From NCBI RefSeq assembly GCF_000020025.1, contig NC_010628.1, positions 7,080,001 to 7,112,000 on the forward strand: a stretch of DNA of 32,000 nt, in the 5' to 3' direction. Of this stretch, positions 2,581 to 29,323 are shown in pieces. Both the position numbers and the translations under genes were made by a program. The DNA is from Nostoc punctiforme PCC 73102 (GTDB lineage Bacteria > Cyanobacteriota > Cyanobacteriia > Cyanobacteriales > Nostocaceae). Position 1 is the stretch's first letter, and each line of letters opens with the position of its first letter. A model generated the notes under the pieces. That model saw nothing but the letters and a program-made list of their open reading frames with translations, was not told the origin of the DNA and ran no database searches.

Positions 2581-3102
2581 ATGAGTGAGCAGGATTGCAG
2601 AAAGACTGTCATCCAAACAGGCCAAAAAGTCAATTTTGTAGATATTGGCAGTTCATTTTTGCCTGCCTTTGAAAAAATAACGAGTGTTCTAGTCGTACCT
2701 TTTACCAAGGATGGTTTAATTGTATGCCCTCTCCTTGACCGTGGTATTGACCTCCCTGGGGGACATGTGCAGATAGGCGAATTTACTTGTGAGGAAACTG
2801 CAAGACGAGAAGTTATGGAGGAGGTAAAAGTAACTCTAGGAGAATTAAAACTTGTGAAATTTATCCAGTCTGATTTTTACGGTAGTCAACCTGAGCAGCT
2901 TACATACCTTGTGGTCATGACTGGCTTTGTTGAGGAAATAATCTCTAACAATAGCTATGACTGTCTAAGCTTATGTACACATGAAAGTATGGGAAGAAAC
3001 ATTATGGATATTGATGAATTCATTTCTCAATATCAAGCAGGCAATAAAAATGATATGCGTCAAATTGTGCTAGACGCAAAAAGTGTGCTATTCAACATTT
3101 AA
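2581..3102 (+). CDS. NUDIX hydrolase
   Basis: Near-canonical Nudix box GGHVQIGEFTCEETARREVMEEVKV. It follows GX5E..REUXEEXXU, but the middle spacer has one extra residue. Confidence 0.75.
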   Translation: MSEQDCRKTVIQTGQKVNFVDIGSSFLPAFEKITSVLVVPFTKDGLIVCPLLDRGIDLPGGHVQIGEFTCEETARREVMEEVKVTLGELKLVKFIQSDFYGSQPEQLTYLVVMTGFVEEIISNNSYDCLSLCTHESMGRNIMDIDEFISQYQAGNKNDMRQIVLDAKSVLFNI

Positions 3103-3666
3103 TGGTATTTTCGCCTTTTGAAACACCTGCTCAACAGTAAATTTGAGTCCCTCGAATAGGGAATCTGTGAGTAATTCGTCTCCCATATAAGTTTGTGGTG
3201 CTGCATCTGGATAAAAAACAGTAATACTTCTGGCTTTACTATCTACCACCCACACCCGCAGCACTTTAGCATCCAAATAGTTTTTGGCTTTAGCTACCAT
3301 TTTTCCAAAGGTTTGTCCGGGTGAAATAATTTCAATCACTAAATCGGGAGGAACAGGACAAGCTTCGTTTTCATCCCAGTTAGTGGGTAAACGTTCATAA
3401 GAGATGTACAAAATATCTGGTGTTGGTACCCAATCTCGCCCCCGACGAGTTAATGTAACAGACCATTCCGGGCAGACTTCTCCTTTACCTTCACATGATT
3501 GCTCAATCAAGTTGAGAAGAACACGCGTAAGTTTGGCGTGAAAAAATTTTGGTGACATTTTAGGAATTGCTTGACCATCAACAAGTTCATAAGTTATATC
3601 TCCTTCACCTGGTGAAAGATTTAAGAACTCTTGCAAGGTTAATTGGTTTTTGGCTTGGAGTATCAT
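3088..3666 (-). CDS. Uma2-family (DUF820) putative endonuclease
   Basis: LTLQEFLNL..YELVDGQAIPKMSP..H..L, then PDLVIEIISPG and the RVWVVD tail, are typical of the cyanobacterial Uma2 family. Its 3' end overlaps the convergent NUDIX gene by 15 nt. Confidence 0.8.
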   Translation of the reverse strand: MILQAKNQLTLQEFLNLSPGEGDITYELVDGQAIPKMSPKFFHAKLTRVLLNLIEQSCEGKGEVCPEWSVTLTRRGRDWVPTPDILYISYERLPTNWDENEACPVPPDLVIEIISPGQTFGKMVAKAKNYLDAKVLRVWVVDSKARSITVFYPDAAPQTYMGDELLTDSLFEGLKFTVEQVFQKAKIPLNVE

Positions 3667-8664: not shown

Positions 8665-10131
8665 TTGCTCGTAATGACTCTGGCTGAAACTCCAAACTAC
8701 AAAAATTCTAGCAATCCTCTTCTCTCCCTCAACTACGAAAGCGCCTTAGAATCTCTAGGTGATGACTACTATGATGAGGTGGCAGCTGCTGAATTTCCCC
8801 AACACATCTTGCGTTGGCGTAACGATGCACTACTACCTCGTTTGGGTTTAGACCCCCAAGTAGTCAAAGACGAAGATTTCATCACAGCTTTTGGCCAGTT
8901 TCAGGGGCGCAAACCCTTGTTAGCACTACGTTACCACGGCTATCAATTTGGTGAATATAACGGACAGTTGGGTGATGGTAGAGGCTTTCTCTATGGACAA
9001 GTCCGCGCCACTGATGGCGAATTATACGATTTTGGCACAAAAGGCTCTGGGAGAACGCCCTACTCCCGTGGGGGCGATGGTATGCTCACGCTCAAAGGTG
9101 GGGTGCGGGAAGTTCTAGCTGCGGAAGCACTACACCACTTGGGTGTACGTACCTCGCGCTGTTTGACCATGATTGAAACAGGTTTACCACTTTGGCGGGG
9201 CGATGAACCTTCACCTACCCGCTCATCTGTGATGATTAGAATGAGCAGTTCTCATATTCGGTTTGGCACTTTTGAGCGACTGCACTATTTTCAGCGTCCA
9301 GATTTAACTAAGAAGCTGTTAGACCACGTAATTGAGCAGTATTATCGACACTTAAGTAGTGAACAAGATAAATATGTCTTGTTTTACGCCGAATTAGTTA
9401 AACGAGTTGCAGAACTAGTAGCGCAGTGGATGGCGGCGGGCTTTTGTCATGCAGTCCTGAATACTGACAATATGTCGATTACTGGAGAGAGTTTTGACTA
9501 TGGCCCTTACGCGTTTATCCCAACTTATAACCCATCCTTTATAGCTGCATATTTTGATTATTATGGACGCTATTGTTACGGTAATCAACCAAGTATTTGT
9601 AAGTTGAATTTACAAATGCTCCAAGAACCTTTAAAGGCGATTCTCGATAAAGACGAAATGGAAGCGGCATTAGAAAGGTTTGATGAATATTATCAAGCTG
9701 AATACAGTTCTTTGATGTTGAAAAGGTTAGGTTTTGTGGAATTGTCATACCCACAAGCTGCGGAACTGTTGAATCTAACGGTTGAATTTTTGAAGGATAG
9801 CCAAGTTGGTTATCACCAGTTTTTTTATGAGATGGCTCGAACTTTTTCATCAAAATGGCGAGATGAGCCAGGTTTTGTGATGAATAATTCAGATATTGTG
9901 CCAGTACCGGGTGCGTCAGGAATTTTTGATGATTGGTGCATACTATACCATAAAATCTTGAATGATTTTGATAGCGACCGCATCGATGTAATTGCCCAAA
10001 CACTAGCTGTTCATAATCCTAAAACGGCACTATTAAGACCTGTGATTGAGTCTACTTGGAAAGCAATTGCTCAAGAAGATAATTGGCAACCTTTTTATGA
10101 GTTAATCCAGGCAATTCAGTCTAGAAAATAG
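8665..10131 (+). CDS. selO: protein adenylyltransferase SelO (YdiU/UPF0061 family)
   Basis: [87 protein letters not shown] are hallmark SelO pseudokinase-fold motifs. The track start is TTG; the ATG at 8674 is more likely. Confidence 0.9.
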
Positions 10132-10215
10132 TAAAATCACACCTATTTTCTTTTTCATGTAGACAGACTTATTGAGATTATATCTGGTGTAATTTACACG
10201 ACGAGTAATCTAATA

Positions 10216-10240
10216 AGAGACGTTGCATTGCAACGTCTCT
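10216..10240. repeat. palindromic small dispersed-repeat hairpin (variant of the GTAGAGACG..CGTCTCTAC family)
   Basis: agagacgttgca t tgcaacgtctct forms perfect 12-bp arms, followed by acaaaaattttt. It could double as the selO terminator. Confidence 0.7.
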
Positions 10241-10457
10241 ACAAAAATTTTTAACTAAATTGTATAGATATAGCAATCCGAGTTGAATTGAATTGCGAGA
10301 AAATACCTAGGTCGGTTATCAAATATAAAAGTAAAATTTTATTCAGCCTTGCTAATTAGAAATCACGGCTACACAGACTAAACCCAAAGTTCTGATGCTC
10401 TAAAACCTACCTCAGAATTATTTTTGCCTGCGTGGGTTATTTTTTCAATCCACGTAC

Positions 10458-11735
10458 ATGGACGATAGTTTATGTAGCAACGAATTTTTTTCACCTATTG
10501 GTTCCAAATTTCTCTATCGCATCTTAGAAAACCTTAAAAAAATGAATCAGATATATATATCATACGCATGGAAAGATAACAAGAGTGAATTAGGTAGTCA
10601 ACGCGAAGAATTAGTCGATAAAATTTGCACCGCACTTATTTCTGAACGTTACAACTTAATTCGCGATCGCAACTATTTAACGCTAGGTAAGAGTATACAC
10701 GACTTCATGCAGGAAATCGGGCGCGGAAACTATGTAATTGTCGTTGTCAGCGACAAATATTTGCGATCGGAATACTGTATGTTTGAAGCTATTGAAATCA
10801 TGAAGCGCAAGGATTATGAACAAAAAGTTTTTCCTGTGGTTTTACAGGATGCTAATGTCTATACCAAAGAAGGCAAGACTGAGTATATAAAATATTGGAA
10901 GCAACAGAGTGAAAAACTAAAACAACTTATGGGTTCAGAACTATCTGCTCATCAAGATTCTGCAATGTATAATGTTGCTGAAAAAATTATGGAAATTTCC
11001 CAGAAGATTGACGAATTCATGTTTTTTATCTCAGATAAATTAAGCATTGATCCGTCTCAAAACTTTAATGGATTTATCAATCAGCTTACTGATGCTATTA
11101 AAAATGATGCTGTTAAACTCAGAAGCAAAAAGAGTATTTTAGTTGCAGGAACAGGATTTTTTGAAATTCCTAATGAAATCAATTGGTGCGCTCAACAACT
11201 TGGTGAAAAAATAGCAGAATATAACTATAACTTGATAACAGGTGGATGGGAAGGAGTAGATTATGTTGTCGCTGATAATTTTGCCGAAAAAATCGCGCAA
11301 AAAGATATACGCCTAACTGATAAGTTAACTCACGTTGTTCCGCGAGGAAAACAACCTGTATTTAAGGGTGGAAAAGTCGAATACACCGAGTCAGGTATTA
11401 ATGAGTGGCTTGATTGTTTGCGACATTCAGATTTGGTGATTCTTGTGGGAGGCGTTGGTGGAACTTATGAAACTTATCTATATGCTAAACAAGAGAAAAT
11501 TCCGGTGATTCCTATTGTCTGTACTAATGGCGATGCCAAAAAAGTATTCGACGAAATGCTGGCAAATTGGGATAGTAAATTAATGGGAAATATCTCACCG
11601 GAAAAATTTAAATCACTGAATCAATATATCAATGACGAATCAACAGCAGAAGATGTAGTCAATGATGTTATGGATATCGTTAACGAAATTATTTTTGCAA
11701 AAACCATGCTAAATACCCAGGGTCAGCTCATCTAA
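10458..11735 (+). CDS. TIR-domain / SLOG (LOG-like Rossmann) fusion protein
   Basis: N-terminal half: IYISYAWKD..GKSIHDFMQEIGRGNYVIVVVSDKYLRSEYCMFEAIEI is a TIR-like flavodoxin-fold pattern with an S-x-x-C-x-x-E glutamate at codon 10785-10787. C-terminal half: ILVAGTG..LITGGWEGVD..DLVILVGGVGGTYETY..IPVIPI matches the LOG/SLOG GGxxGxM and PGGxGTxxE motifs. The probable true start is ATG 10542 (MNQIYISY). Confidence 0.75.
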   Translation: MDDSLCSNEFFSPIGSKFLYRILENLKKMNQIYISYAWKDNKSELGSQREELVDKICTALISERYNLIRDRNYLTLGKSIHDFMQEIGRGNYVIVVVSDKYLRSEYCMFEAIEIMKRKDYEQKVFPVVLQDANVYTKEGKTEYIKYWKQQSEKLKQLMGSELSAHQDSAMYNVAEKIMEISQKIDEFMFFISDKLSIDPSQNFNGFINQLTDAIKNDAVKLRSKKSILVAGTGFFEIPNEINWCAQQLGEKIAEYNYNLITGGWEGVDYVVADNFAEKIAQKDIRLTDKLTHVVPRGKQPVFKGGKVEYTESGINEWLDCLRHSDLVILVGGVGGTYETYLYAKQEKIPVIPIVCTNGDAKKVFDEMLANWDSKLMGNISPEKFKSLNQYINDESTAEDVVNDVMDIVNEIIFAKTMLNTQGQLI

Positions 11736-11926
11736 TTTGGTATAAGGCATCTGCGAGTTAATAGTATCCCAACCCTCAGCCATCGAGAGTTGAGCGCAGC
11801 GATGCACTGAGCGCAGTCGAAGTGTCGAAACTCGGTTTACTGGTACTTTATTTTCACGCAATTCCCTAAACTTAACTTGAAAAATCAAAGAAGATAGGGA
11901 GGCATCATAACAAAACTTTTTGCCAA

Positions 11927-12565
11927 TTATGTTCCCGGACGAGAGCGAATATGATCGGGTATATGATGACGATCGCCTAATATTTCTAACAAAGGGCCAT
12001 TAACGTCAAATTTAACCATACTTACCGACGCGACCAAAATATTCACCCGATAGCGATAGCGTCCCAAATCAATACCCAGTAAACTGCAAAGCATAATCCG
12101 AATCGTGGCTTTATGGGAAACCACTAAAACATTACCTTGGTGATGTTTTTCTTGAATTTCAGCAATTACAGGCATAGAACGGTTAGCAATATCTACCGCA
12201 GTTTCTCCACCTTTGGGAGCATTCCAAGCGGGTTCTGTCATCCAATTTACATAGTTTTGGGCGTAATTCTCTTGGGCAAACGATTTACTCTTCCTTTCCC
12301 ATTCGCCGTAACTACCTTCTCTAAGTCCGTCACGCAACTGCATATCCATACCGATAGCATCACAAAATGGCTTGGCAGTTGCAATTGTGCGCTTCATCGG
12401 GCTAACGTAAACAGCTTCCCACTTCAATTTTTGATAAACATCGGCAAAACCGGATGCCATCTGCATCCCCTCTGTTGTCAACTCCGCATCAGTTTCACCG
12501 CAGAAATTACCACTTTGACTAAAAGTAGTTTCTCCATGTCGCAGTAAATATAAATTGAGTGTCAT
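11927..12565 (-). CDS. histidine phosphatase family protein (phosphoglycerate-mutase-like)
   Basis: LYLLRHGETTFS (RHG catalytic motif) together with VVSHKATIR (the second catalytic His). Confidence 0.85.
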   Translation of the reverse strand: MTLNLYLLRHGETTFSQSGNFCGETDAELTTEGMQMASGFADVYQKLKWEAVYVSPMKRTIATAKPFCDAIGMDMQLRDGLREGSYGEWERKSKSFAQENYAQNYVNWMTEPAWNAPKGGETAVDIANRSMPVIAEIQEKHHQGNVLVVSHKATIRIMLCSLLGIDLGRYRYRVNILVASVSMVKFDVNGPLLEILGDRHHIPDHIRSRPGT

Positions 12566-12731
12566 AGCTTATATCACGATTGGGATAAAGGAGTTGGTGC
12601 AAAAACAAAGTACCATCAATCTCGGAATCGATTATGTGACACCAGGACAAAGTAATCAACCAAAAAAGTCAATCCAACACAGACTTTTGAAAAGTTCTCC
12701 TTTTCTCTAACTCTCTGTGTCTTTTCCACTG

Positions 12732-14456
12732 CTAACTAAATTGCTGGGCATAAAACCGCGCGTAGCGATGCTCTAGGGCTAATAATTCTTCATGGGTTCC
12801 TGATTCAACAATTTGTCCCTGTTCGAGAACTAAAATGCGATCGCACCGTCTCACGGTTGATAAACGGTGAGCAATAATAAATACTGTGCGTTTTTGCATC
12901 AGTCTTTCTAGCGCTTCCTGTACCAGTGCTTCTGATTCCGAGTCTAATGCTGATGTCGCCTCATCAAGAATCAATATTTGGGGATTGAGGAGAACCGCAC
13001 GAGCGATCGCAATTCTTTGTCTTTGTCCTCCTGATAAGTTTACCCCACGTTCGCCCACCCAGGTCTGATAACCCTCTGGCAGTTGGCTAATGAACTGATG
13101 AGCATTAGCAATCTTCGCCGCCTCTTTAACTGCTTCCATGTCAAAAACATCTTGTCCAAAGGCGATATTTTGGGCAATTGTCCCCGAAAACATGATGGTT
13201 TCTTGAGGAACGATCCCAATTTGCCGCCGCAGACTATGCAGTTTCACATCCCGAATATCAACATCGTCAATGAAAATTTGACCAACTTCGGGGTCGTAAA
13301 AACGGGGGAGGAGATTGACAAATGTGGTTTTACCAGCACCAGAAGCACCCACAAGAGCGATCGCTTCACCTGGTGATACCAATAAACTGATATTTTTCAA
13401 TACGGGTTCACCAGGCTTATAGGCAAAGGAAATATGACGATATTCTATTTTGCCTTTGACTGGAGCCAGAGCGATCGCATTGATCTTTTCGATTACCGTC
13501 GGCTGAATTGCCATCAATTCAAAAACGCGGTCAACAGATGCTTCACCCTGCTTAAATTCGTTGTAGTTGTTAGTAGTATGACCAATGGGATCAATTAACA
13601 GTGCCGCCGCCGCCAGATAGCTGAAAAAATTCGCCACTGTCAAGTTATTCTGGGAAATTTGCCACGCTCCCACAATCAGTAACGATAACGCACTTAAAGC
13701 TTCTAGAAATCCCACAATGGGAATCTGAATCGCTTTCAGGCGTTCGGCTGAGTATTTTGCTTTCAGACTGCGTTCTGCTTCATGGCCAAAGCGGGCGATT
13801 TCATAATTTTCAGCAGCAAAAGCCTGTACTAAACGAATACCATTGAAAACTTCCGCAAGGATGGCTGATAAACCCGACACGCGATTTTGACTTTTTAAGG
13901 AATATTTGCGTAAACGTTCACCAAACCAGCCAACTAAAATACCCATCAGTGGCGCAACAATCACCGTTGCTAATGTCAGTTGCCAATTCAGATAAATCAT
14001 GTAAATCGGAATTGCCAACAACTGCAAAATGCAGGGGATAAAGTCGTGAAATCCTTTATTTACAACTTCGCCAACCCGGTCAACATCTTCGGTGAGGCGG
14101 TAAGATAAATCACCTGCTTTTGCGGTTTCAAAATAGCTGAGATTTAGCTTTTGCAGATGGGCGTAGACTTGCTGACGGAGATAAAAAGCAACTCTCAAAG
14201 AAGCCTTGGCCATGTACATATCTTGTATAGACTGAAACAAGCCTCTGACAAGAAAGACTAAGGCACAGCTGCCAGTTATTTGAGCGATCGCTACTACATT
14301 ACCCTGTGCAAAGGGAATTGCCAATTTACCGGCAAGATTTATCAACACTAATGTCGCCAGAACGTATCCCAAGATACCAATAAGTCCCTTGGTGATGGTT
14401 TTCCACTGGAGTCGGATATAAGGCAGTAGTTGCCAGTAATTAGAACGCGTTTTCAA
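12732..14456 (-). CDS. ABC exporter, fused permease/ATPase (MsbA-like type I exporter)
   Basis: Six-helix N-terminal transmembrane domain, Walker A GASGAGKTT, signature LSGGQRQRIAIARA and Walker B ILILDEATSALD. The track start is TTG and no upstream ATG is in frame. Confidence 0.9.
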   Translation of the reverse strand: MKTRSNYWQLLPYIRLQWKTITKGLIGILGYVLATLVLINLAGKLAIPFAQGNVVAIAQITGSCALVFLVRGLFQSIQDMYMAKASLRVAFYLRQQVYAHLQKLNLSYFETAKAGDLSYRLTEDVDRVGEVVNKGFHDFIPCILQLLAIPIYMIYLNWQLTLATVIVAPLMGILVGWFGERLRKYSLKSQNRVSGLSAILAEVFNGIRLVQAFAAENYEIARFGHEAERSLKAKYSAERLKAIQIPIVGFLEALSALSLLIVGAWQISQNNLTVANFFSYLAAAALLIDPIGHTTNNYNEFKQGEASVDRVFELMAIQPTVIEKINAIALAPVKGKIEYRHISFAYKPGEPVLKNISLLVSPGEAIALVGASGAGKTTFVNLLPRFYDPEVGQIFIDDVDIRDVKLHSLRRQIGIVPQETIMFSGTIAQNIAFGQDVFDMEAVKEAAKIANAHQFISQLPEGYQTWVGERGVNLSGGQRQRIAIARAVLLNPQILILDEATSALDSESEALVQEALERLMQKRTVFIIAHRLSTVRRCDRILVLEQGQIVESGTHEELLALEHRYARFYAQQFS

Positions 14457-23824: not shown

Positions 23825-23864
23825 GATCCCCCTAAATCCCCCTTAAAAAGGGGGACTTTAAGAA
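23825..23864. repeat. 40-bp inverted-repeat arm (left) flanking the DUF559 gene
   Basis: gatccccctaaatcccccttaaaaagggggactttaagaa is the exact reverse complement of 24308-24347. It contains the internal palindrome cccccttaaaaaggggg. A degenerate inverted copy follows at 23870-23896. Confidence 0.9.
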
Positions 23865-24259
23865 TTTTTCCCCTTAAAAGGGAGTTTAGGAGGGATTAAA
23901 CCCTGTATCTGCTCACACACACTATCAAATTGATTTAAAACTTGACTATTTGTAAACCTAATAATCTTTAAACCATAGCCTTCTAGAATATGTGTTCTCT
24001 CTATGTCATAATCTTGACCTTCATCTGTAAAATGGCTATCCCCATCAATTTTAACTACTTGTAAAGTAGGACAGTAGAAATCAACTATAAAATGATTAAT
24101 TGGTCTTTGTCTTAAAACCCGAAATTGAAAATCACTCAGATATTCACACCACAGCTTTTTTTCTGCTGGGGTCATATTTTTGCGAAGTTCTTTTGCTCTT
24201 TCTACAAGCTTTGGATTGTAAGGTAAATGGAAATTGCTACTGTTGAGGTTGTTCATCAT
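23858..24259 (-). CDS. DUF559 (Vsr-like) endonuclease-domain protein
   Basis: MTPAEKKLWCEYL..FRVLRQRPINHFIVDFYCPTLQVVKIDGDSHF..D..R..L...G..IIRFTNSQV is the typical DUF559 core. Confidence 0.8.
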   Translation of the reverse strand: MMNNLNSSNFHLPYNPKLVERAKELRKNMTPAEKKLWCEYLSDFQFRVLRQRPINHFIVDFYCPTLQVVKIDGDSHFTDEGQDYDIERTHILEGYGLKIIRFTNSQVLNQFDSVCEQIQGLIPPKLPFKGKNS

Positions 24260-24307
24260 AGTTTCTAGTGTTTATCCCTTTACACTCCTTGAAAAGGTGG
24301 GAAAAAG

Positions 24308-24347
24308 TTCTTAAAGTCCCCCTTTTTAAGGGGGATTTAGGGGGATC
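24308..24347. repeat. 40-bp inverted-repeat arm (right) flanking the DUF559 gene
   Basis: ttcttaaagtccccctttttaagggggatttagggggatc is the exact reverse complement of 23825-23864. Confidence 0.9.
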
Positions 24348-24454
24348 AAACCACATTCTACACAGCATCTAGATGTGTGTACACGATAGCGTCCCTTGTA
24401 GGTAAGAGATTGGGGGTTAAGTTTGAGAGAAAGAAGTTGCACAGTACATTAATC

Positions 24455-24664
24455 AGTATCAAAGACTCGTCCACGAGTATCAAAGACTCGTCCATGAGTA
24501 TAAAAGACTCGTCCGCGAGTATCAAAGGCTCGTCCGCGAGTATCAAAGACTCGTCCGCGAGTATCAAAGACTCATTCACGAGTATCAAAGACTCATCCAC
24601 GAGTATCAAAGACTCTCGCGCGAGTATAAAAGACTCGTCCACGAGTATTAAAGACTCATTACAG
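24455..24664. repeat. tandem repeat, 10 copies of a 21-bp unit (consensus AGTATCAAAGACTCGTCCACG)
   Basis: Read copy by copy at exact 21-bp spacing. Positions 1-15 are nearly invariant and positions 12-21 vary (gtccacg, gtccatg, gtccgcg, attcacg, atccacg, tcgcgcg, attacag). Confidence 0.95.
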
Positions 24665-24743
24665 CAATATTTCATTGATTTAGAAAACACTCTCGCGTTC
24701 TTCTTTGCGTCTTTGCGTGAGATAAAAAATCTTTTGGTGCTGT

Positions 24744-24771
24744 AATTACGAATTACGAATTACGAATTATG
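24744..24771. repeat. STRR-type heptamer tandem repeat (AATTACG x3, plus a degenerate AATTATG)
   Basis: aattacg aattacg aattacg aattatg. It overlaps the stop codon and the last codons (VMHNS*) of the TPR reading frame. Confidence 0.85.
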
Positions 24772-25287
24772 CATTACTCTATCAAGACTTGCACTCACAC
24801 TTTCAGCATACGGTGACTTCAATCGCTGCAAAATCTTTAAAGCTGGTTGCAAATAGGATATCGCTTTAGTATATTCACCCTGCTGTTCTGCCAAATCTCC
24901 TAAGCACCACAGAGTTATTGCTTTACCTTGGACATCACCAATGCGTTCATTTATTTCCAAAGACTGATTGAAAAGTGCGATCGCTTGCTCCACTTCCCCT
25001 TTGTTCGCGTAGATACCTGCCAGATTGTTCAACGTCGCCGCTTTGCCTTGGACATCCCCAATGCGTTCTTCTATTTCTAAAGACTGATTGTAGAGTGCGA
25101 TCGCTTCATCCACTTCCCCTTTGTTGACGTAGATCAGTCCCAGACAGTGCAACGTCGCTGCTTTGCCTTGGACATTACCAATGCGTTCATTTATTTCCAA
25201 AGACTGATTGAAAAGTGCGATCGCTTGCTCCACTTCCCCTTTGTTCGCGTAGATAGATCCCAGTTCTTGCAAGGTTACCGCTTTGCC
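24760..25287 (-). pseudogene. TPR-repeat continuation of the CHAT-STAND gene downstream of an in-frame TGA (detached tail, readthrough extension or pseudogenised C-terminus)
   Basis: Same frame as 25288-28227. The codons just after the TGA read GKAVTLQELGSIYANKGEVEQAIALFNQSLEINERIGNV.., continuing the 40-aa repeat in register. The track ORF 24760-25272 (TTG start) covers most of it. Confidence 0.55.
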
Positions 25288-25740
25288 TCAGACATTTCCA
25301 ATGCGTTCAAATATTTCCAAAGACTGATTATAGAGTGCGAGCGCTTCATCCACTTCCCCTTTGTCGGCGTAGATATTTCCCAGTTGGATCAACGTCGCTG
25401 CTTTGCTTTGGACATTACCAATGCGTTCATTTATTTCCAAAGACTGATTGAAAAGTGCGATCGCTTCATCCACTTCCCCTTTGCCGGCGTAGATATTTCC
25501 CAGACAGCTCAACGTCACCGCTTTGCTTTGGACATCTCCAATGCGTTCACTTATTTCCAAAGACTGATTGTAGAGTGCGAGCGCTTCATCCACTTCCCCT
25601 TTGCCGGCGTAGATATTTCCCAGACAGCCCAACGCTTCCGCTTTGCATTGGACATTTCCAATGCGTTCAAATATTTCTAAAGACTGATTGCAGAGTGCGA
25701 GCGCTTCATCCACATCCCCTTTGTCGTCTTTAAGCATACA
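24921..25740. repeat. about 7 tandem 120-bp units (coding; 40-aa TPR-like repeats) with very high internal identity
   Basis: Unit starts (ctttgccttggacat..) recur at 24921, 25041, 25161, 25281, 25401, 25521 and 25641. For example, 24941-25015 is identical to 25181-25255 (75 bp). Confidence 0.9.
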
Positions 25741-28227
25741 TAAATGTTGATAAATTGATGCTAATTCTCTTTCGTCTTCTGCGGGACAAAAATTTAAAGC
25801 TTGTTGGTAATAGCTTAATGCTTGATCAACCTCACCCATTTGGTGTTTAGAATAAGCCATTTCTTTGAGAACACTATGATTTTTAGTAATTTCTAATGTT
25901 GATTTGCACAGATGTATTGCTTCCCGAAAACGGCTTTGATGCAACAAGTGGTTCGCCAATGAACTAGCTATTTTCCCCACAATTTCTTCATCCTTCCCCA
26001 ACAAAGCCAAGCGATGAATTTCTAACTTTTGTGACTCCGTAGCAGTTTCCTCTTCCCACCACAGACGATACAAAATTTGTGCAGCTTGTTTATACAACTC
26101 TTCACCCTTGGGGTTTTCTGGAAACTCTAGCAACGGTGACAAAATCCGGGGAACACGATACAACCTCTCTGTGTTGTTAGTCAGCGTAACTTCCAACAAA
26201 CCCAAAATTTCAGCGCGTTGAATATGACTTTCCCAACTTGAGATATCCTCACAAATCGGCTTAATAGCAGCTTGAGGAACAGGTAACTCATACACCAACA
26301 ACTTCCCCAGCATAAGACGCAAAGCTGGAGTTTGCTGCTTCAGCAATTCCTGTGCCAAAATATCCTCACGAAATTCCTTTTCCTTATCTGCCATCTTTTG
26401 CAGAATCATCTCAACTCCCCTCTCCGCTTCTGCCGACTTCGGGGAATTTTGCAAAATCTTATCTAACCATTCCAACAGCCGAGGATTTCCATTTGCTGCT
26501 TGTTTGGCACGTTCCGGCAAATCTGGCTGAAATTGCCAACTGCCATTAAACGAATCCAGACGATTACACTTTTTAATTAAATCTGCCCCACCCAAAGCCC
26601 CCAGAGGTTCGCGGTACAGACGATGATTCAGTTCCGACAATGTGAAATCGTAGCGACAGGTAATAATTACCTTGTGGGGAAGTTGGGAATTTTGCATCGC
26701 CTTCAGCAACGCCAGCAGTACATCTACAACTTGTGGTTGCAACAAATAAACCCCATTGCGTAATTCCAAATTCGCCTCAAAGTCATCCAGCACAAAAACA
26801 AAGCGCTGTTCTTTGGTATTGAGTCCTTCAGTGAAAAACTTGGTGAGGCGCTGCATCAACGGTAATTTGCCATTGAGAATTTCATGCCCCCGTTCCGAGG
26901 TACATTGTTCAGCAAGGGTTTTGAGCAATTTGTCCTCATCTAGTTGCCGAAAGTTCACCAGCCTGTGATAGCCAACCATCCTTTCTAGAAGTCGCGCCGT
27001 CACAGTACTCTTACCCACACCCCCCATTCCGTGGATGAGTACCCCCAATGAAGTGCGAATAGCTTTGAGACAACGTTGCAAAGTCCGCCGTCTGCCAACA
27101 AATTCATACGGTTTCGCCACCCGCACCTGTTGGGTATCGGGATCTAAAAACTGTTGGTATGCAGGTTCCGGCGCTGAGGGTGGCAAATCTCCCCACACTT
27201 CCACGAACGCACCCGGACATTCTCCCTGAATATATAACCGTAATAAATGCCAGTCACGCACTTTCTGTTTAAACAACTGCTGGTAAGTGCTAGCGAGTGC
27301 TTGGGCTAATTGATATCCGGCTGCCAATTTGCCGTAGAGATGCGCGGCGGCGGCTGTAGCAGTCCGGTCTTCCACAGGTCGCCCCCAACTTAAAACAGCG
27401 ATCGCCCCTTGTTCAATAAGTGCCTCAGCCATAGAAGGGACAGCGCCTTTATCTGGTGCTTGTCCAGTCCGACACCCAGACAAAAACACCAACTTGGGAA
27501 ACCGAAACCGGAAGACTTCGGCGAGTTCTGCGGCTGTGGTTTCGTGGCGTTCTCCAACTTCCGTCTCAGTGATAAAGTAAGGCGTGTAAGGTGCTTCACT
27601 TTTAATTGAGGCGTGTCCTGTGAGGTGAAACACATCAAAGTCATTAAAATACCGACTCCACACCTTACCCAACTCGCTAACGCAACCGCTTTCTTCCACC
27701 CGCAAATCTACAGCAAAATCTCGCGTATCAGCCAGAATTCTCGCCTCTTCCTGTTCAAACTCTAACTTTGGTTCCACGTCTTCCGGGTCGGTTGCCATAA
27801 ACAATACTCGCAATTGTCGTGGTTCCACGAGAAACCCTGCCGTTTCTTTCTCAATCCAGCGCAGAGGCAAAACCACCGGATTAACCCGCTTGACCAAAAA
27901 ATCCTCACCATCATGCAGAACTTCCCAAGGTAGATGTGCCAATTTTTTATCAGTATCAATGGCAATTACCAACCCCTCACCGCGACAGTCAGCAATTCCC
28001 CGACTCAACCAGCGTCCATCGCTATCTAACCAAAAAAATAACTGGTGCCCGATTCCTGGTAAATTAGGCAGCAGTTTATAGTAATCTCGTTCTCCTTGCT
28101 TGAGGAAATTAGCGATTTCTGCCAATTTCAGACGACGTGATTCATAGTGATTTTTTTGAGGTAGCCAATACCTGAGTTCAACTGTTTCCTGCGTACTTTC
28201 CCGAAGTTGAATGCGGATAGTTTGCAC
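25288..28227 (-). CDS. CHAT (caspase-like protease) - P-loop STAND NTPase (NACHT/NB-ARC-like) - TPR repeat protein
   Basis: CHAT: LRVLFMATDPEDV, DVFHLTGHA (His205, nt 27613-27615), KLVFLSGCRTGQ (Cys252, nt 27472-27474). NTPase: VLIHGMGGVGKSTV Walker A (Lys406, nt 27010-27012) and RFVFVLDDFE Walker B. The C-terminal 40-aa TPR units start around residue 750. The frame ends at TGA 25288-25290 inside the repeat array. The GTG start directly abuts the upstream TAA. Confidence 0.85.
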   Translation of the reverse strand: MQTIRIQLRESTQETVELRYWLPQKNHYESRRLKLAEIANFLKQGERDYYKLLPNLPGIGHQLFFWLDSDGRWLSRGIADCRGEGLVIAIDTDKKLAHLPWEVLHDGEDFLVKRVNPVVLPLRWIEKETAGFLVEPRQLRVLFMATDPEDVEPKLEFEQEEARILADTRDFAVDLRVEESGCVSELGKVWSRYFNDFDVFHLTGHASIKSEAPYTPYFITETEVGERHETTAAELAEVFRFRFPKLVFLSGCRTGQAPDKGAVPSMAEALIEQGAIAVLSWGRPVEDRTATAAAAHLYGKLAAGYQLAQALASTYQQLFKQKVRDWHLLRLYIQGECPGAFVEVWGDLPPSAPEPAYQQFLDPDTQQVRVAKPYEFVGRRRTLQRCLKAIRTSLGVLIHGMGGVGKSTVTARLLERMVGYHRLVNFRQLDEDKLLKTLAEQCTSERGHEILNGKLPLMQRLTKFFTEGLNTKEQRFVFVLDDFEANLELRNGVYLLQPQVVDVLLALLKAMQNSQLPHKVIITCRYDFTLSELNHRLYREPLGALGGADLIKKCNRLDSFNGSWQFQPDLPERAKQAANGNPRLLEWLDKILQNSPKSAEAERGVEMILQKMADKEKEFREDILAQELLKQQTPALRLMLGKLLVYELPVPQAAIKPICEDISSWESHIQRAEILGLLEVTLTNNTERLYRVPRILSPLLEFPENPKGEELYKQAAQILYRLWWEEETATESQKLEIHRLALLGKDEEIVGKIASSLANHLLHQSRFREAIHLCKSTLEITKNHSVLKEMAYSKHQMGEVDQALSYYQQALNFCPAEDERELASIYQHLCMLKDDKGDVDEALALCNQSLEIFERIGNVQCKAEALGCLGNIYAGKGEVDEALALYNQSLEISERIGDVQSKAVTLSCLGNIYAGKGEVDEAIALFNQSLEINERIGNVQSKAATLIQLGNIYADKGEVDEALALYNQSLEIFERIGNV

Positions 28228-28554
28228 TTATTTGCTGAGAGATTTGAGGATTTCCGTGATTTCCTCTAGAGTAGCATCTTCGAGTAAAATCCTGTTTCCA
28301 GTATCAGGGTCAAGAATTACCACATCAAATTGCTTACCTGGATGAGATTTATGCCATTCTTGATACCATTTGCGAATTTGTTCAGCTAAAGCCGCAGCAC
28401 CACCGACAATGCCAATAATAGTAGCAATGGCGGCGAGAGTTCCCTCTCTTTGCGTCGGAACTTCATAGCTTCCCGATATTTCAGGAATTTCTAACAAAGC
28501 CTCGGCTGCTGCTGGTGCGCCTTCACCCTCAATACCGACTTGAATTCCTGCCAT
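28228..28554 (-). CDS. small protein (108 aa) with a central hydrophobic helix, translationally coupled to the CHAT-STAND gene
   Basis: MAGIQVGIEGEG.., then the hydrophobic stretch TLAAIATIIGIVGGAAALA (residues 39-57), then a charged C-terminal part. Its TAA (28228-28230) is immediately followed by the GTG (28227-28225) of the next gene. Confidence 0.6.
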   Translation of the reverse strand: MAGIQVGIEGEGAPAAAEALLEIPEISGSYEVPTQREGTLAAIATIIGIVGGAAALAEQIRKWYQEWHKSHPGKQFDVVILDPDTGNRILLEDATLEEITEILKSLSK

Positions 28555-28738
28555 TAAATACCTACGAATTTATACAAGATTCTGTATATTATCCGTTGAA
28601 TTGGGGATAACATTCCCGCTCATACACAGAGAGAATTGCAAAATATTTACTTAGTGTTGTACCAATTGTCTAAAATAAAACAACAGACCCAAACCTGGAA
28701 ACCCAGATTAAATCTGACTTTTTTAATTTTTAATTGAT

Positions 28739-29323
28739 ATGTCTCTTGCTCCTTGGCGAGGTGCGATCGCTCATGCGCTCCATCGCAACCGCAGCCTTGT
28801 TTATGCCCGTTACCTGCAACTAGCAACAGTGCAACCTAATGGCCGTCCCGCTAATCGTACCCTAGTCTTTCGCGGCTTCCTGGAAGATACAAACCAGCTA
28901 AGATTTATCACCGATACTCGTAGCGCCAAAGCCGACCAGATACAGCAACAACCTTGGGCAGAAATTTGCTGGTACTTTCCCAATACACGAGAACAATTCC
29001 GCATGGCTGGCGATTTGACCCTAATCAGCAGTGATGATTCTCACCAGGATTTACAGCCAGCCCGGATCGCAATGTGGCAAGAATTAAGTGATGCGGCGCG
29101 TTTACAGTTTGGTTGGCCCTATCCTGGTAAACCCAGAATCAAAGAATCAGGGGCCTTTGAGCCATCACCACCCGATCCTATTGAGCCAGTACCTAATTTT
29201 TGTCTCCTGCTACTCGATCCGGTGCAAGTAGACCATTTAGAATTACGCGGCGAACCACAAAATAGATGGCTTTACCACCGTAATGACCAGCAAGAGTGGT
29301 CTAGCGAAGCAATTAATCCGTGA
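28739..29323 (+). CDS. PPOX-class FMN-dependent flavoprotein (alr4036-type pyridoxamine 5'-phosphate oxidase-related)
   Basis: YLQLATVQPNGRPANRTLVFRGF..LRFITDTRSAKADQI..AEICWYFPNTREQFRMAG fits the PNPOx-like split-barrel pattern of the cyanobacterial alr4036 family. Confidence 0.75.
   Translation: MSLAPWRGAIAHALHRNRSLVYARYLQLATVQPNGRPANRTLVFRGFLEDTNQLRFITDTRSAKADQIQQQPWAEICWYFPNTREQFRMAGDLTLISSDDSHQDLQPARIAMWQELSDAARLQFGWPYPGKPRIKESGAFEPSPPDPIEPVPNFCLLLLDPVQVDHLELRGEPQNRWLYHRNDQQEWSSEAINP

Follow-up and report, generated by a model that had tools for sequence, protein, structure and literature searches.

A divergent EACC1-caspase gene pair in Nostoc punctiforme PCC 73102, probably a STAND-controlled, protease-gated cell-suicide module

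A 32,000-nucleotide stretch of the Nostoc punctiforme PCC 73102 genome (NCBI RefSeq assembly GCF_000020025.1, contig NC_010628.1, positions 7,080,001 to 7,112,000; hereafter the window) contains, on its minus strand, two adjoining genes whose products are annotated as a "hypothetical protein" (ACC84048.1) and a "tetratricopeptide repeat protein" (ACC84047.1). The locus represents, in a divergent cyanobacterial form, a system already known, the type of which was predicted in 2020 (Kaur, Burroughs, Iyer and Aravind, eLife; PMC7159879) and the mechanism of which was shown in 2025 (Evans et al., preprint; bioRxiv 10.1101/2025.11.14.688446). We consider it probable that it acts as an EACC1-caspase two-gene conflict system, in which a CHAT protease controlled by a signal transduction ATPase with numerous domains (STAND) cuts a latent pore former and leads the cell to suicide. 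Neither accession appeared in any paper found by a literature search with these identifiers. The two genes, their junction and the region in which cleavage is expected are located as follows, in coordinates of the window:

28228..28554, minus strand: gene of the small protein assigned to the EACC1 family, ATG start, 108 amino acids (open reading frame call; ACC84048.1 / B2J932)
28437..28451, minus strand: predicted protease cleavage region, codons 35-39 (Q-R-E-G-T) in an exposed loop, the equivalent of the Asp49 cut in the Ktedonobacter racemifer homologue
28225..28230, minus strand: TAA-GTG junction without spacer (TAA 28228-28230, GTG 28225-28227)
25288..28227, minus strand: CHAT / nSTAND1 / TPR gene, GTG start, 979 amino acids (open reading frame call; ACC84047.1 / B2J931)

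A preliminary description of this DNA, made by reading the letters and their open reading frames (ORFs), had reported a 108-amino acid ORF whose TAA is directly followed by the GTG of a 979-amino acid ORF, and both were found in place on the minus strand. Since the stop codon of the small ORF abuts the start codon of the protease gene, translational coupling is indicated, and the two genes are probably carried by one message and coupled through the abutting TAA-GTG. A scan of positions 24200-29000 for promoters and terminators returned promoter-like matches that lie mostly inside a 21-bp repeat downstream of the operon, and terminator-like matches that were fewer than in shuffled sequence. The two ORFs also share the reading frame in the window, and read-through of the TAA in the 28225-28230 junction would yield a fusion of the small protein with the protease. 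Such a fusion product was considered and rejected, as many orthologues have a spacing of 1-2 nucleotides, which puts the genes in different frames; the shared frame in N. punctiforme is therefore probably incidental.

The small ORF bears the signature of a coding gene, a point that the preliminary description had left to be checked: 82 homologues of about 107 amino acids were found in Nostocales, Planktothrix, Coleofasciculus and Leptolyngbyaceae, and the median ratio of non-synonymous to synonymous substitution rates (dN/dS) against 72 orthologues was 0.167, indicative of purifying selection. Sequence comparisons place the protein in the EACC1 family (PF19953) as a divergent member, because of the matches obtained with profiles of its own relatives, a pairwise BLASTP match, the Pfam family recurring among those relatives, and a match to the characterized K. 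racemifer protein. Indeed, a profile made from close relatives only (A1), searched against 1.84 billion proteins, matched 234 clusters, including P0197 (E 2.1e-13) and P0214 (E 4.8e-12), which both exceed the Pfam EACC1 cut-off, as does P0244. A broader family profile (A3) matched the PF19953-positive P0244 at E 7e-29, and BLASTP aligned the 108-amino acid protein with P0244 over its full length, with 37% identity and an E-value of 4e-18. EACC1 was the only recurring Pfam family among 69 diverse relatives, 14 of which matched it at E 0.01 or better. Finally, the A3 hidden Markov model recognized residues 13-103 of K. racemifer EACC1 (KrEACC1; sequence from Table S1 in bioRxiv 10.1101/2025.11.14.688446), with 21.2 bits and an E-value of 1.4e-8 in a single comparison; on the EACC1 model of Pfam, KrEACC1 reaches no more than 28.2 bits. 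The EACC1-like partner that the preliminary description had envisaged was thus borne out by family profiles and transitive homology, though the direct Pfam score is below threshold, as discussed below.

Scans of the 108-amino acid protein against NCBIfam and PADLOC gave no match, and a precomputed Pfam domain was present in none of its 82 close homologues. Further sub-threshold Pfam matches, to the viral families Tail_P2_I (0.021) and Polyoma_coat2 (0.06), were taken as noise, EACC1 being the one family that recurred among the relatives at E 0.01 or better. An EACC1-like domain was also observed at the C-terminus of longer proteins, namely P0168 (368 amino acids), P0197 (241 amino acids), P0217 (224 amino acids), P0171 and P0184, the N-terminal regions of which gave no Pfam match; they may represent the EAD fusions of which Kaur et al. 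wrote, or result from errors in gene calling.

The most distinctive part of the small protein is a hydrophobic Gly/Ala-rich segment at residues 39-57 (TLAAIATIIGIVGGAAALA), with a mean Kyte-Doolittle hydropathy of 2.09 over 19 residues; within it T45, I46, G48, I49, V50, G51 and G52 each reach 90% conservation or more across 35 homologues. The conserved core of the protein reads T-I-A-T-I-V-G-I-V-G-G ... A-E-Q-I-R-K-W-Y-Q-E, the EQIRKWYQE helix being placed after the hydrophobic segment and before a C-terminal beta-beta-alpha unit. A structure model was obtained with AlphaFold2 from a 64-sequence alignment (predicted local distance difference test score, pLDDT, 87; predicted template modelling score, pTM, 0.77). 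Its N-terminal part (residues 1-31) is a beta-alpha-beta unit (strand 4-10, helix 13-21, strand 26-31), and the loop 32-40 is followed by strand 41-49, helix 53-70, strands 76-81 and 88-90, and helix 96-107. The preliminary description had seen here a hydrophobic helix of 18-20 residues: the segment is present, but it is predicted to be partly strand and partly helix within a compact, soluble alpha+beta fold, and not a membrane-spanning helix. The modelled fold agrees with that published for EACC1, in which the N-terminal inhibitory part shares a sheet with the C-terminal strands. A Foldseek search of the model against the PDB gave no match with E below 0.01; the PII, ACT and ferredoxin-like entries that came closest (best E 0.013, TM-score below 0.5) were not taken as homology.

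The preliminary description knew of no experimental characterization of this two-gene arrangement, a statement that is now out of date. The pair formed by KrEACC1 and KrAvs12 was tested by Evans et al., in whose experiments toxicity arose only when EACC1, the catalytic cysteine and a phage tail connector protein were all present; after purification, the protease cleaves EACC1 to fragments of 5.7 and 7.1 kDa, with a predicted site at Asp49 (bioRxiv 10.1101/2025.11.14.688446). Toxicity is confined to the C-terminal fragment, liposomes are permeabilized only after cleavage, and the uncut KrEACC1 is a soluble, autoinhibited monomer that becomes membrane-active only once cleaved; moving the cut by a few residues leaves toxicity intact (same preprint). 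Fragments computed for a cut after D49 have masses of 5.73 and 7.17 kDa, which match those in the preprint. The Nostoc small protein resembles KrEACC1 in its near full-length profile match and in that the Asp49 cut falls in the equivalent loop, just ahead of the hydrophobic segment: D49 aligns with T39 by hhalign and hmmsearch, or with R36 in a pairwise alignment. In the Nostoc model the loop 32-40 is exposed and has the lowest confidence (mean pLDDT 72 over residues 31-40). By analogy, the cleavage site of the Nostoc protein would lie in this loop, around residues 36-40.

The product of the second gene is a caspase-superfamily protease fused to a STAND nucleoside triphosphatase (NTPase) and to an array of tetratricopeptide repeats (TPR). 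Its parts, together with the remainder that a premature stop codon cuts off, are the following:

27193..28227, minus strand: CHAT (caspase-superfamily) protease module, residues 1-345 (Pfam, AlphaFold2 and Foldseek)
27613-27615, minus strand: codon of the catalytic His205 (TGHA; motif position)
27472-27474, minus strand: codon of the catalytic Cys252 (LSGC; motif position)
26608..27105, minus strand: STAND NTPase domain (nSTAND1 / AAA_16), residues 375-540 (Pfam)
27004-27030, minus strand: Walker A, GMGGVGKST, residues 400-408, including K406 (motif)
26782-26799, minus strand: Walker B, VFVLDD, residues 477-482 (motif)
25996..26607, minus strand: helical region between NTPase and TPR, residues ~541-744 (conserved among homologues; no Pfam family called)
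25291..25995, minus strand: TPR sensor array up to the premature stop, residues ~745-979, four highly similar 40-amino acid units (Pfam)
25288..25290, minus strand: in-frame premature TGA, codon 980 (from the sequence; other units carry CAA, Gln)
24760..25287, minus strand: cut-off remainder, 175 codons in the same frame, three 40-amino acid TPR units and a C-terminal cap (Pfam TPR_12, E 5.6e-46)
24920..25726, no strand: 120-bp tandem repeat encoding the 40-amino acid TPR units, 6.7 copies, 85% matches (Tandem Repeats Finder)

The catalytic dyad, the Walker motifs and the TPR array named in the preliminary description all proved to be where it had put them (H205, C252, K406 and residues 477-482), and Pfam recognizes CHAT, nSTAND1 and TPR in the protein. 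The CHAT match covers residues 85-324 (27256-27975; E 4e-23). The NTPase matches AAA_16 at residues 375-513 (E 1.3e-11) and nSTAND1 at residues 376-535, with 33.7 bits against a cut-off of 27.1; the match to NB-ARC is weak. The catalytic residues are kept almost without exception among 72 orthologues, H205 in all of them, C252 in 71, and K406 and D481/D482 in 70. The region of residues ~541-744 is presumed, from the layout of related proteins, to be the STAND helical or winged-helix arm. Residues 1-560 were modelled with AlphaFold2 from 39 homologues (pLDDT 88, pTM 0.87), and the best Foldseek match of the protease module was the TPR-CHAT protein Csx29 (8eey_B; E 2.3e-10, about 365 aligned columns), followed by a SAVED-CHAT filament, separase and DdvA; the NTPase part matched the NB-ARC domain of Sr35, a plant nucleotide-binding leucine-rich repeat receptor (NLR), at E 3e-4. 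A sequence search of the PDB with the whole large protein found TPR proteins only, and one with the TPR array removed found nothing below E 0.5; the CHAT fold is therefore established by structure prediction and Foldseek. The array at residues 745-979 matches TPR_12 at E 4.4e-33, and TPR_1 and TPR_10 also match strongly.

The pairing of the two genes was surveyed in 80 related loci from species-representative genomes, conservation of the pair being one of the checks proposed in the preliminary description. A CHAT homologue lies directly downstream of the small gene in about 76 of them, and the junction is TAAGTG, TAAAGTG or has a 2-nucleotide spacing (0-2 nucleotides apart) in nearly all. Adjacency extends to the PF19953-positive relatives: P0214 is followed by a CHAT-only protein of 547 amino acids, and P0244 by a large gene 4 nucleotides away. 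What stands behind the CHAT domain varies, from nSTAND1-TPR in the window to nothing further in the protein next to P0214, and to AAA_16-GUN4 in a paralogous pair of Tolypothrix sp. PCC 7910 (locus L083, CP050440.1 4639271-4659600). In that locus the genes occupy positions 10001-10330 and 10333-13164 and encode an EACC1-like protein, 44% identical, and a CHAT-AAA_16-GUN4 protein with GUN4 in place of the TPR array. Many other protease homologues likewise carry GUN4 (PF05419), a putative sensor domain, instead of TPR.

This organization corresponds to "System 4" of Kaur et al., an EACC1-caspase two-gene system with a constant small EACC1 gene followed by a caspase-superfamily protease with a variable C-terminus, including STAND NTPases and repeats, which they found to be prevalent in actinobacteria and sporadic in proteobacteria (PMC7159879). 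They proposed EACC1 as a membrane sensor, pointed out its conserved small-residue or glycine patch, and tied EACC1 systems to a multicellular habit, which 650 of 671 organisms share (PMC7159879); nSTAND1 has already been noted in EACC1 systems (PMC8195603). As in System 4, the Nostoc locus belongs to a multicellular bacterium and has a 5' small gene with a hydrophobic Gly-rich core flanked by short alpha+beta parts, and a 3' gene that opens with a caspase-superfamily (CHAT) peptidase with an intact His-Cys dyad. EACC1 homology, hydrophobic core, alpha+beta flanks, CHAT dyad, and a constant, adjacent pair with a variable C-terminus were all found. The locus departs from System 4 as described in that its cyanobacterial subfamily falls below the Pfam cut-off, and the role given to EACC1 by Kaur et al. 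was that of a sensor, not of an effector.

In the mechanism that we favour, the product of gene 2 would be both sensor and transducer, with its C-terminal TPR array, nSTAND1-clade NTPase and N-terminal CHAT protease, and the product of gene 1 would be the effector, a 108-amino acid EACC1 held in a soluble, autoinhibited alpha+beta fold, in which the N-terminal beta-alpha-beta packs on the hydrophobic Gly-rich segment and on the C-terminal strands. The TPR array would bind a ligand, for which a phage protein is the likeliest candidate, as in TPR-type STAND receptors; binding would lift autoinhibition and allow the NTPase to drive oligomerization, which in turn would gather the CHAT domains and activate them. 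The protease would then cut EACC1 in the exposed loop at residues ~36-40, as in the homologue, and the C-terminal fragment (~7.6-7.9 kDa) would oligomerize into membrane pores and kill the infected cell, the course that has been demonstrated for the homologue. From the K. racemifer pair we infer, by analogy, the general behaviour of the Nostoc module as well as its cut position and trigger. The preliminary description had suggested a sensor-switched CHAT protease acting on a small membrane partner, and the homology to the K. racemifer EACC1 and caspase-Avs12 supports this idea.

Three other groups of systems share part of this logic. Bacterial gasdermin operons resemble EACC1 modules in that an adjacent protease removes the inhibitory part of a latent pore former, which results in membrane permeabilization and abortive infection. 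The two are without relationship in sequence or fold: the inhibitory part of bacterial gasdermins is a short C-terminal peptide, whereas that of EACC1, a protein of only 108 amino acids, is N-terminal, and no gasdermin family match was obtained for the small protein in Pfam, NCBIfam or PADLOC. The "different effector logic" that the preliminary description drew from the small size of the protein was nevertheless overstated; an autoinhibited pore former is released in both cases, and only fold and size differ.

In Craspase (type III-E CRISPR), as would be the case in Nostoc, a sensor-switched CHAT protease cuts a dedicated small partner, and its protease Csx29 has the closest solved fold. Craspase differs in its activator, an RNA-guided Cas7-11 complex and not a STAND NTPase, and in the position of the TPR, which is N-terminal to CHAT. 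Its substrate Csx30 is unrelated to EACC1 and works via a sigma factor pathway. None of the window ORFs scanned was a CRISPR-associated gene, and what the locus shares with Craspase is the CHAT fold only.

The large protein also has the layout of the Avs receptors, namely an N-terminal effector or transducer, a central STAND NTPase, here with intact Walker A and B motifs, and a C-terminal TPR-like repeat sensor. In this class a ligand is expected to free the protein from autoinhibition, followed by oligomerization; TPR-type STAND sensors such as Avs7 bind phage proteins and are thereby released from autoinhibition (PMC13581612). Avs7 has a large bilobed TPR domain, whereas the Nostoc protein has a short array of near-identical 40-amino acid units, and no numbered Avs family was assigned to it. 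In particular, the label "Avs12" was rejected for the Nostoc protein, which has no BLASTP similarity to the first 399 residues of KrAvs12.

Several observations weigh against an EACC1-caspase defence system at this locus. The 108-amino acid protein scores 13.3 bits on the Pfam EACC1 model, against a cut-off of 23.6 (E 0.087), with an alignment of residues 35-106 to profile positions 34-106 of 107, and when the family alignment was compared by hhalign with KrEACC1 alone, the probability was only 40.6%; hmmsearch with this alignment, the A3 match given above, gave a clearer result. The Pfam model is weak for a short, fast-evolving family, and the cyanobacterial branch lies just outside it. The 979-amino acid protein, compared by BLASTP with the first 399 residues of KrAvs12 (a partial sequence), gave a best E of 1.8. 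KrAvs12 is without a Pfam CHAT match and its NTPase is nearer to nSTAND3/nSTAND5, whereas the Nostoc protein combines CHAT, nSTAND1 and homogeneous TPR; given this difference of NTPase clade and the missing BLASTP similarity, the trigger of the K. racemifer system, a phage tail connector, and its substrate specificity are not transferable to Nostoc. The PADLOC scan recommended in the preliminary description offered no support, as it has no fitting model and returned generic TPR matches only. The neighbours in the window are mostly housekeeping genes (PNPOx-like protein, CysE-like hexapeptide acetyltransferase, DUF3352 protein, 3'-5' exonuclease; further SMC, SelO, dehydroquinate synthase and a radical-SAM/BATS protein, Pfam Radical_SAM and BATS), and the block upstream, with its PNPOx-like, CysE-like and DUF3352 genes, keeps its synteny in 30-34 of the 80 loci; such neighbours and synteny are atypical of a mobile defence island. 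Finally, the premature stop truncates the sensor, so that the system may be impaired in N. punctiforme.

The last point leads to the most serious of the alternatives, a module that is decaying or disabled in N. punctiforme, its sensor no longer activatable after loss of three TPR units and the cap, and therefore of no current function; we regard this as possible, yet doubtful. The preliminary description had given a read-through length of 1155 amino acids, and this holds: after the in-frame TGA, 175 further TPR residues lead to a C-terminus of the orthologue type. The native stop lies at 24760-24762, and intact orthologues have the read-through end, ...VSASLDRVMHNS*, as their native C-terminus; thus, the ancestral gene had 1155 codons and the TGA at codon 980 is premature. 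At this codon TGA stands for CAA by a CA-to-TG dinucleotide change, as is seen on aligning the unit GNV*GKA with GNVQGKA. The 979-amino acid product, with its stop, is also given in the reference annotation of N. punctiforme; independent short-read contigs of this strain stop short of codon 980, each of them breaking within the TPR array.

Array integrity was assessed in 56 orthologous loci in which both gene ends were located: 34 TPR genes were intact and ~18-20, about one third, were interrupted inside the array, a proportion that suggests frequent inactivation. By class, the tool called 13 frameshifts and 9 in-frame stops, the window included, a few of these calls being artefacts, and the endings "KGEVD*" and the frame-shifted "YLRQQRGSG*" recurred. 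The interrupted loci, in our numbering, are L014, L016, L020, L026, L027, L030, L034, L037, L040, L044, L045, L048, L051, L057, L058, L066, L067 and L070, together with the window at 25288-25290. On the other hand, neither the small ORF nor the CHAT and NTPase domains are damaged in N. punctiforme, all catalytic residues being present, the truncated protein keeps four 40-amino acid units, and among the orthologous loci the protease and NTPase parts are almost never interrupted. The disruptions concentrate in the repeat array, where errors of sequencing or assembly are likeliest and where short-read contigs break. It is probably through the 120-bp repeat that the array expands, contracts and is disrupted, and the interruptions could stem from assembly errors in these repeats, from decay or from selection for truncation. 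A programmed event at the TGA, whether read-through or recoding, was considered and set aside: orthologues are broken at differing positions and by differing means (frameshifts, TAA/TAG-type stops), which argues against a conserved recoding signal.

An EACC1-caspase suicide module might also serve a purpose that is not primarily antiviral. As a lineage-conserved cell death or stress module of filamentous cyanobacteria, it would sense an endogenous signal through its TPR array, a possibility that we judge unlikely. The conservation of the module and its stable position are unusual for a defence gene, with the same PNPOx-like, CysE-like and DUF3352 surroundings in many Nostocales and ~92% identity of protease and NTPase across species; the link of EACC1 systems to multicellularity made by Kaur et al. 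fits as well, as do EACC1-caspase fusions to DnaK-like chaperones, which suggest stress inputs (Evans et al., bioRxiv 10.1101/2025.11.14.688446). Yet the one family member that has been tested answers to phage tail connector proteins, and the Tolypothrix paralogous pair lies in a clear defence island, with Cas6/DevT genes, small RHH and Peptidase_M78 genes and a type I restriction-modification system as neighbours. Hypervariability focused on a few positions of the TPR units and change in unit number are, moreover, more typical of receptors that track variable foreign ligands.

This variability was measured on 326 unique 40-amino acid units from the arrays of 62 related loci. Positions 5, 8, 11, 12, 15 and 37 of the unit are hypervariable (entropy above 1.5 bits) in units otherwise near-identical, and the variable positions 5-15 are spaced as on one face of a helix. 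At the level of sequence, the pattern is that expected of a diversifying ligand-binding surface, and it resembles fungal NLR repeats, which are internally conserved and hypervariable. Intact orthologues have 4-12 TPR units and range from 814 to 1545 amino acids. One could go further and see in the Nostocales module a vertically inherited NLR-like receptor, constant in its position, whose TPR array evolves by gain and loss of units and by hypervariability focused on one face of a helix, as do the repeat domains of fungal and plant NLRs, and whose interruptions are selected, not error or decay. If so, interruptions, that in the finished N. punctiforme genome included, might serve to adjust or switch off a death module prone to autoimmunity, or might give rise to a TPR fragment of its own; at present this is a speculative proposal with a small chance of being correct.

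The least probable alternative, and in our opinion a very improbable one, is the original model of Kaur et al., in which EACC1 is a permanent single-pass membrane sensor or anchor that activates the caspase, and the caspase frees by self-cleavage the C-terminal domains of gene 2 as effectors: residues 39-57 are long and hydrophobic enough for a membrane helix and carry the small-residue or glycine patch noted by those authors, but what follows the protease in gene 2 is a STAND NTPase with TPR, an architecture of sensors and not of effectors, the structure model puts the segment inside a soluble alpha+beta domain, and KrEACC1 behaved in experiments as a soluble monomer and protease substrate, membrane-active only after cleavage.

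Other features of the window are only loosely connected with the gene pair. A gene at 23858-24259 on the minus strand, immediately downstream of the operon, encodes a 133-amino acid DUF559 (endonuclease-like) protein (Pfam E 1.9e-25); it is probably not part of the system, because a homologue occurs in 3 of the 80 loci only, in none of them adjoining the pair. A 21-bp tandem repeat (24455-24657, 9.7 copies, consensus AGTATCAAAGACTCGTCCACG) lies ~100 bp downstream of the native stop of the large gene and creates two long spurious ORFs, at 24358-24690 on the minus strand and at 24377-24745 on the plus strand. A heptamer repeat, AATTACG (4.9 copies, 24744-24777), overlaps the region of the native stop codon; both are probably short tandem repeats of the Nostoc type. 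At ~13 kb from the EACC1 pair, a 425-amino acid protein with a TIR domain at its N-terminus and a STALD/SLOG domain at its C-terminus is encoded on the plus strand (10458-11735; Pfam TIR_2 1.2e-13, STALD 1.2e-8; PADLOC ThsA STALD 1.5e-9), a candidate Thoeris-like, single-protein defence gene. A protein of 192 amino acids (3088-3666, minus strand) gave a nearly full-length match to PDC-S03, a candidate defence family in PADLOC, with an E-value of 3.8e-25.

The locus leaves the general picture unchanged, since systems of this type were predicted in 2020 and their mechanism was shown in 2025. For the organism, the reading that we favour, that of an EACC1-caspase conflict system, suggests what two poorly annotated genes probably do in a model cyanobacterium that is amenable to genetics. 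For the family, it brings to light a cyanobacterial EACC1 branch that current tools miss, with at least 234 clusters when sequences are grouped at 50% identity and, in species-representative genomes, at least 276 loci; as this branch lies below the Pfam cut-off and is absent from PADLOC, surveys based on those models undercount cyanobacterial EACC1 systems. With another type of protease (CHAT), another STAND clade (nSTAND1) and a naturally truncated sensor allele, the Nostoc module offers a natural test case for proteolysis-gated pores beyond the single example characterized so far.

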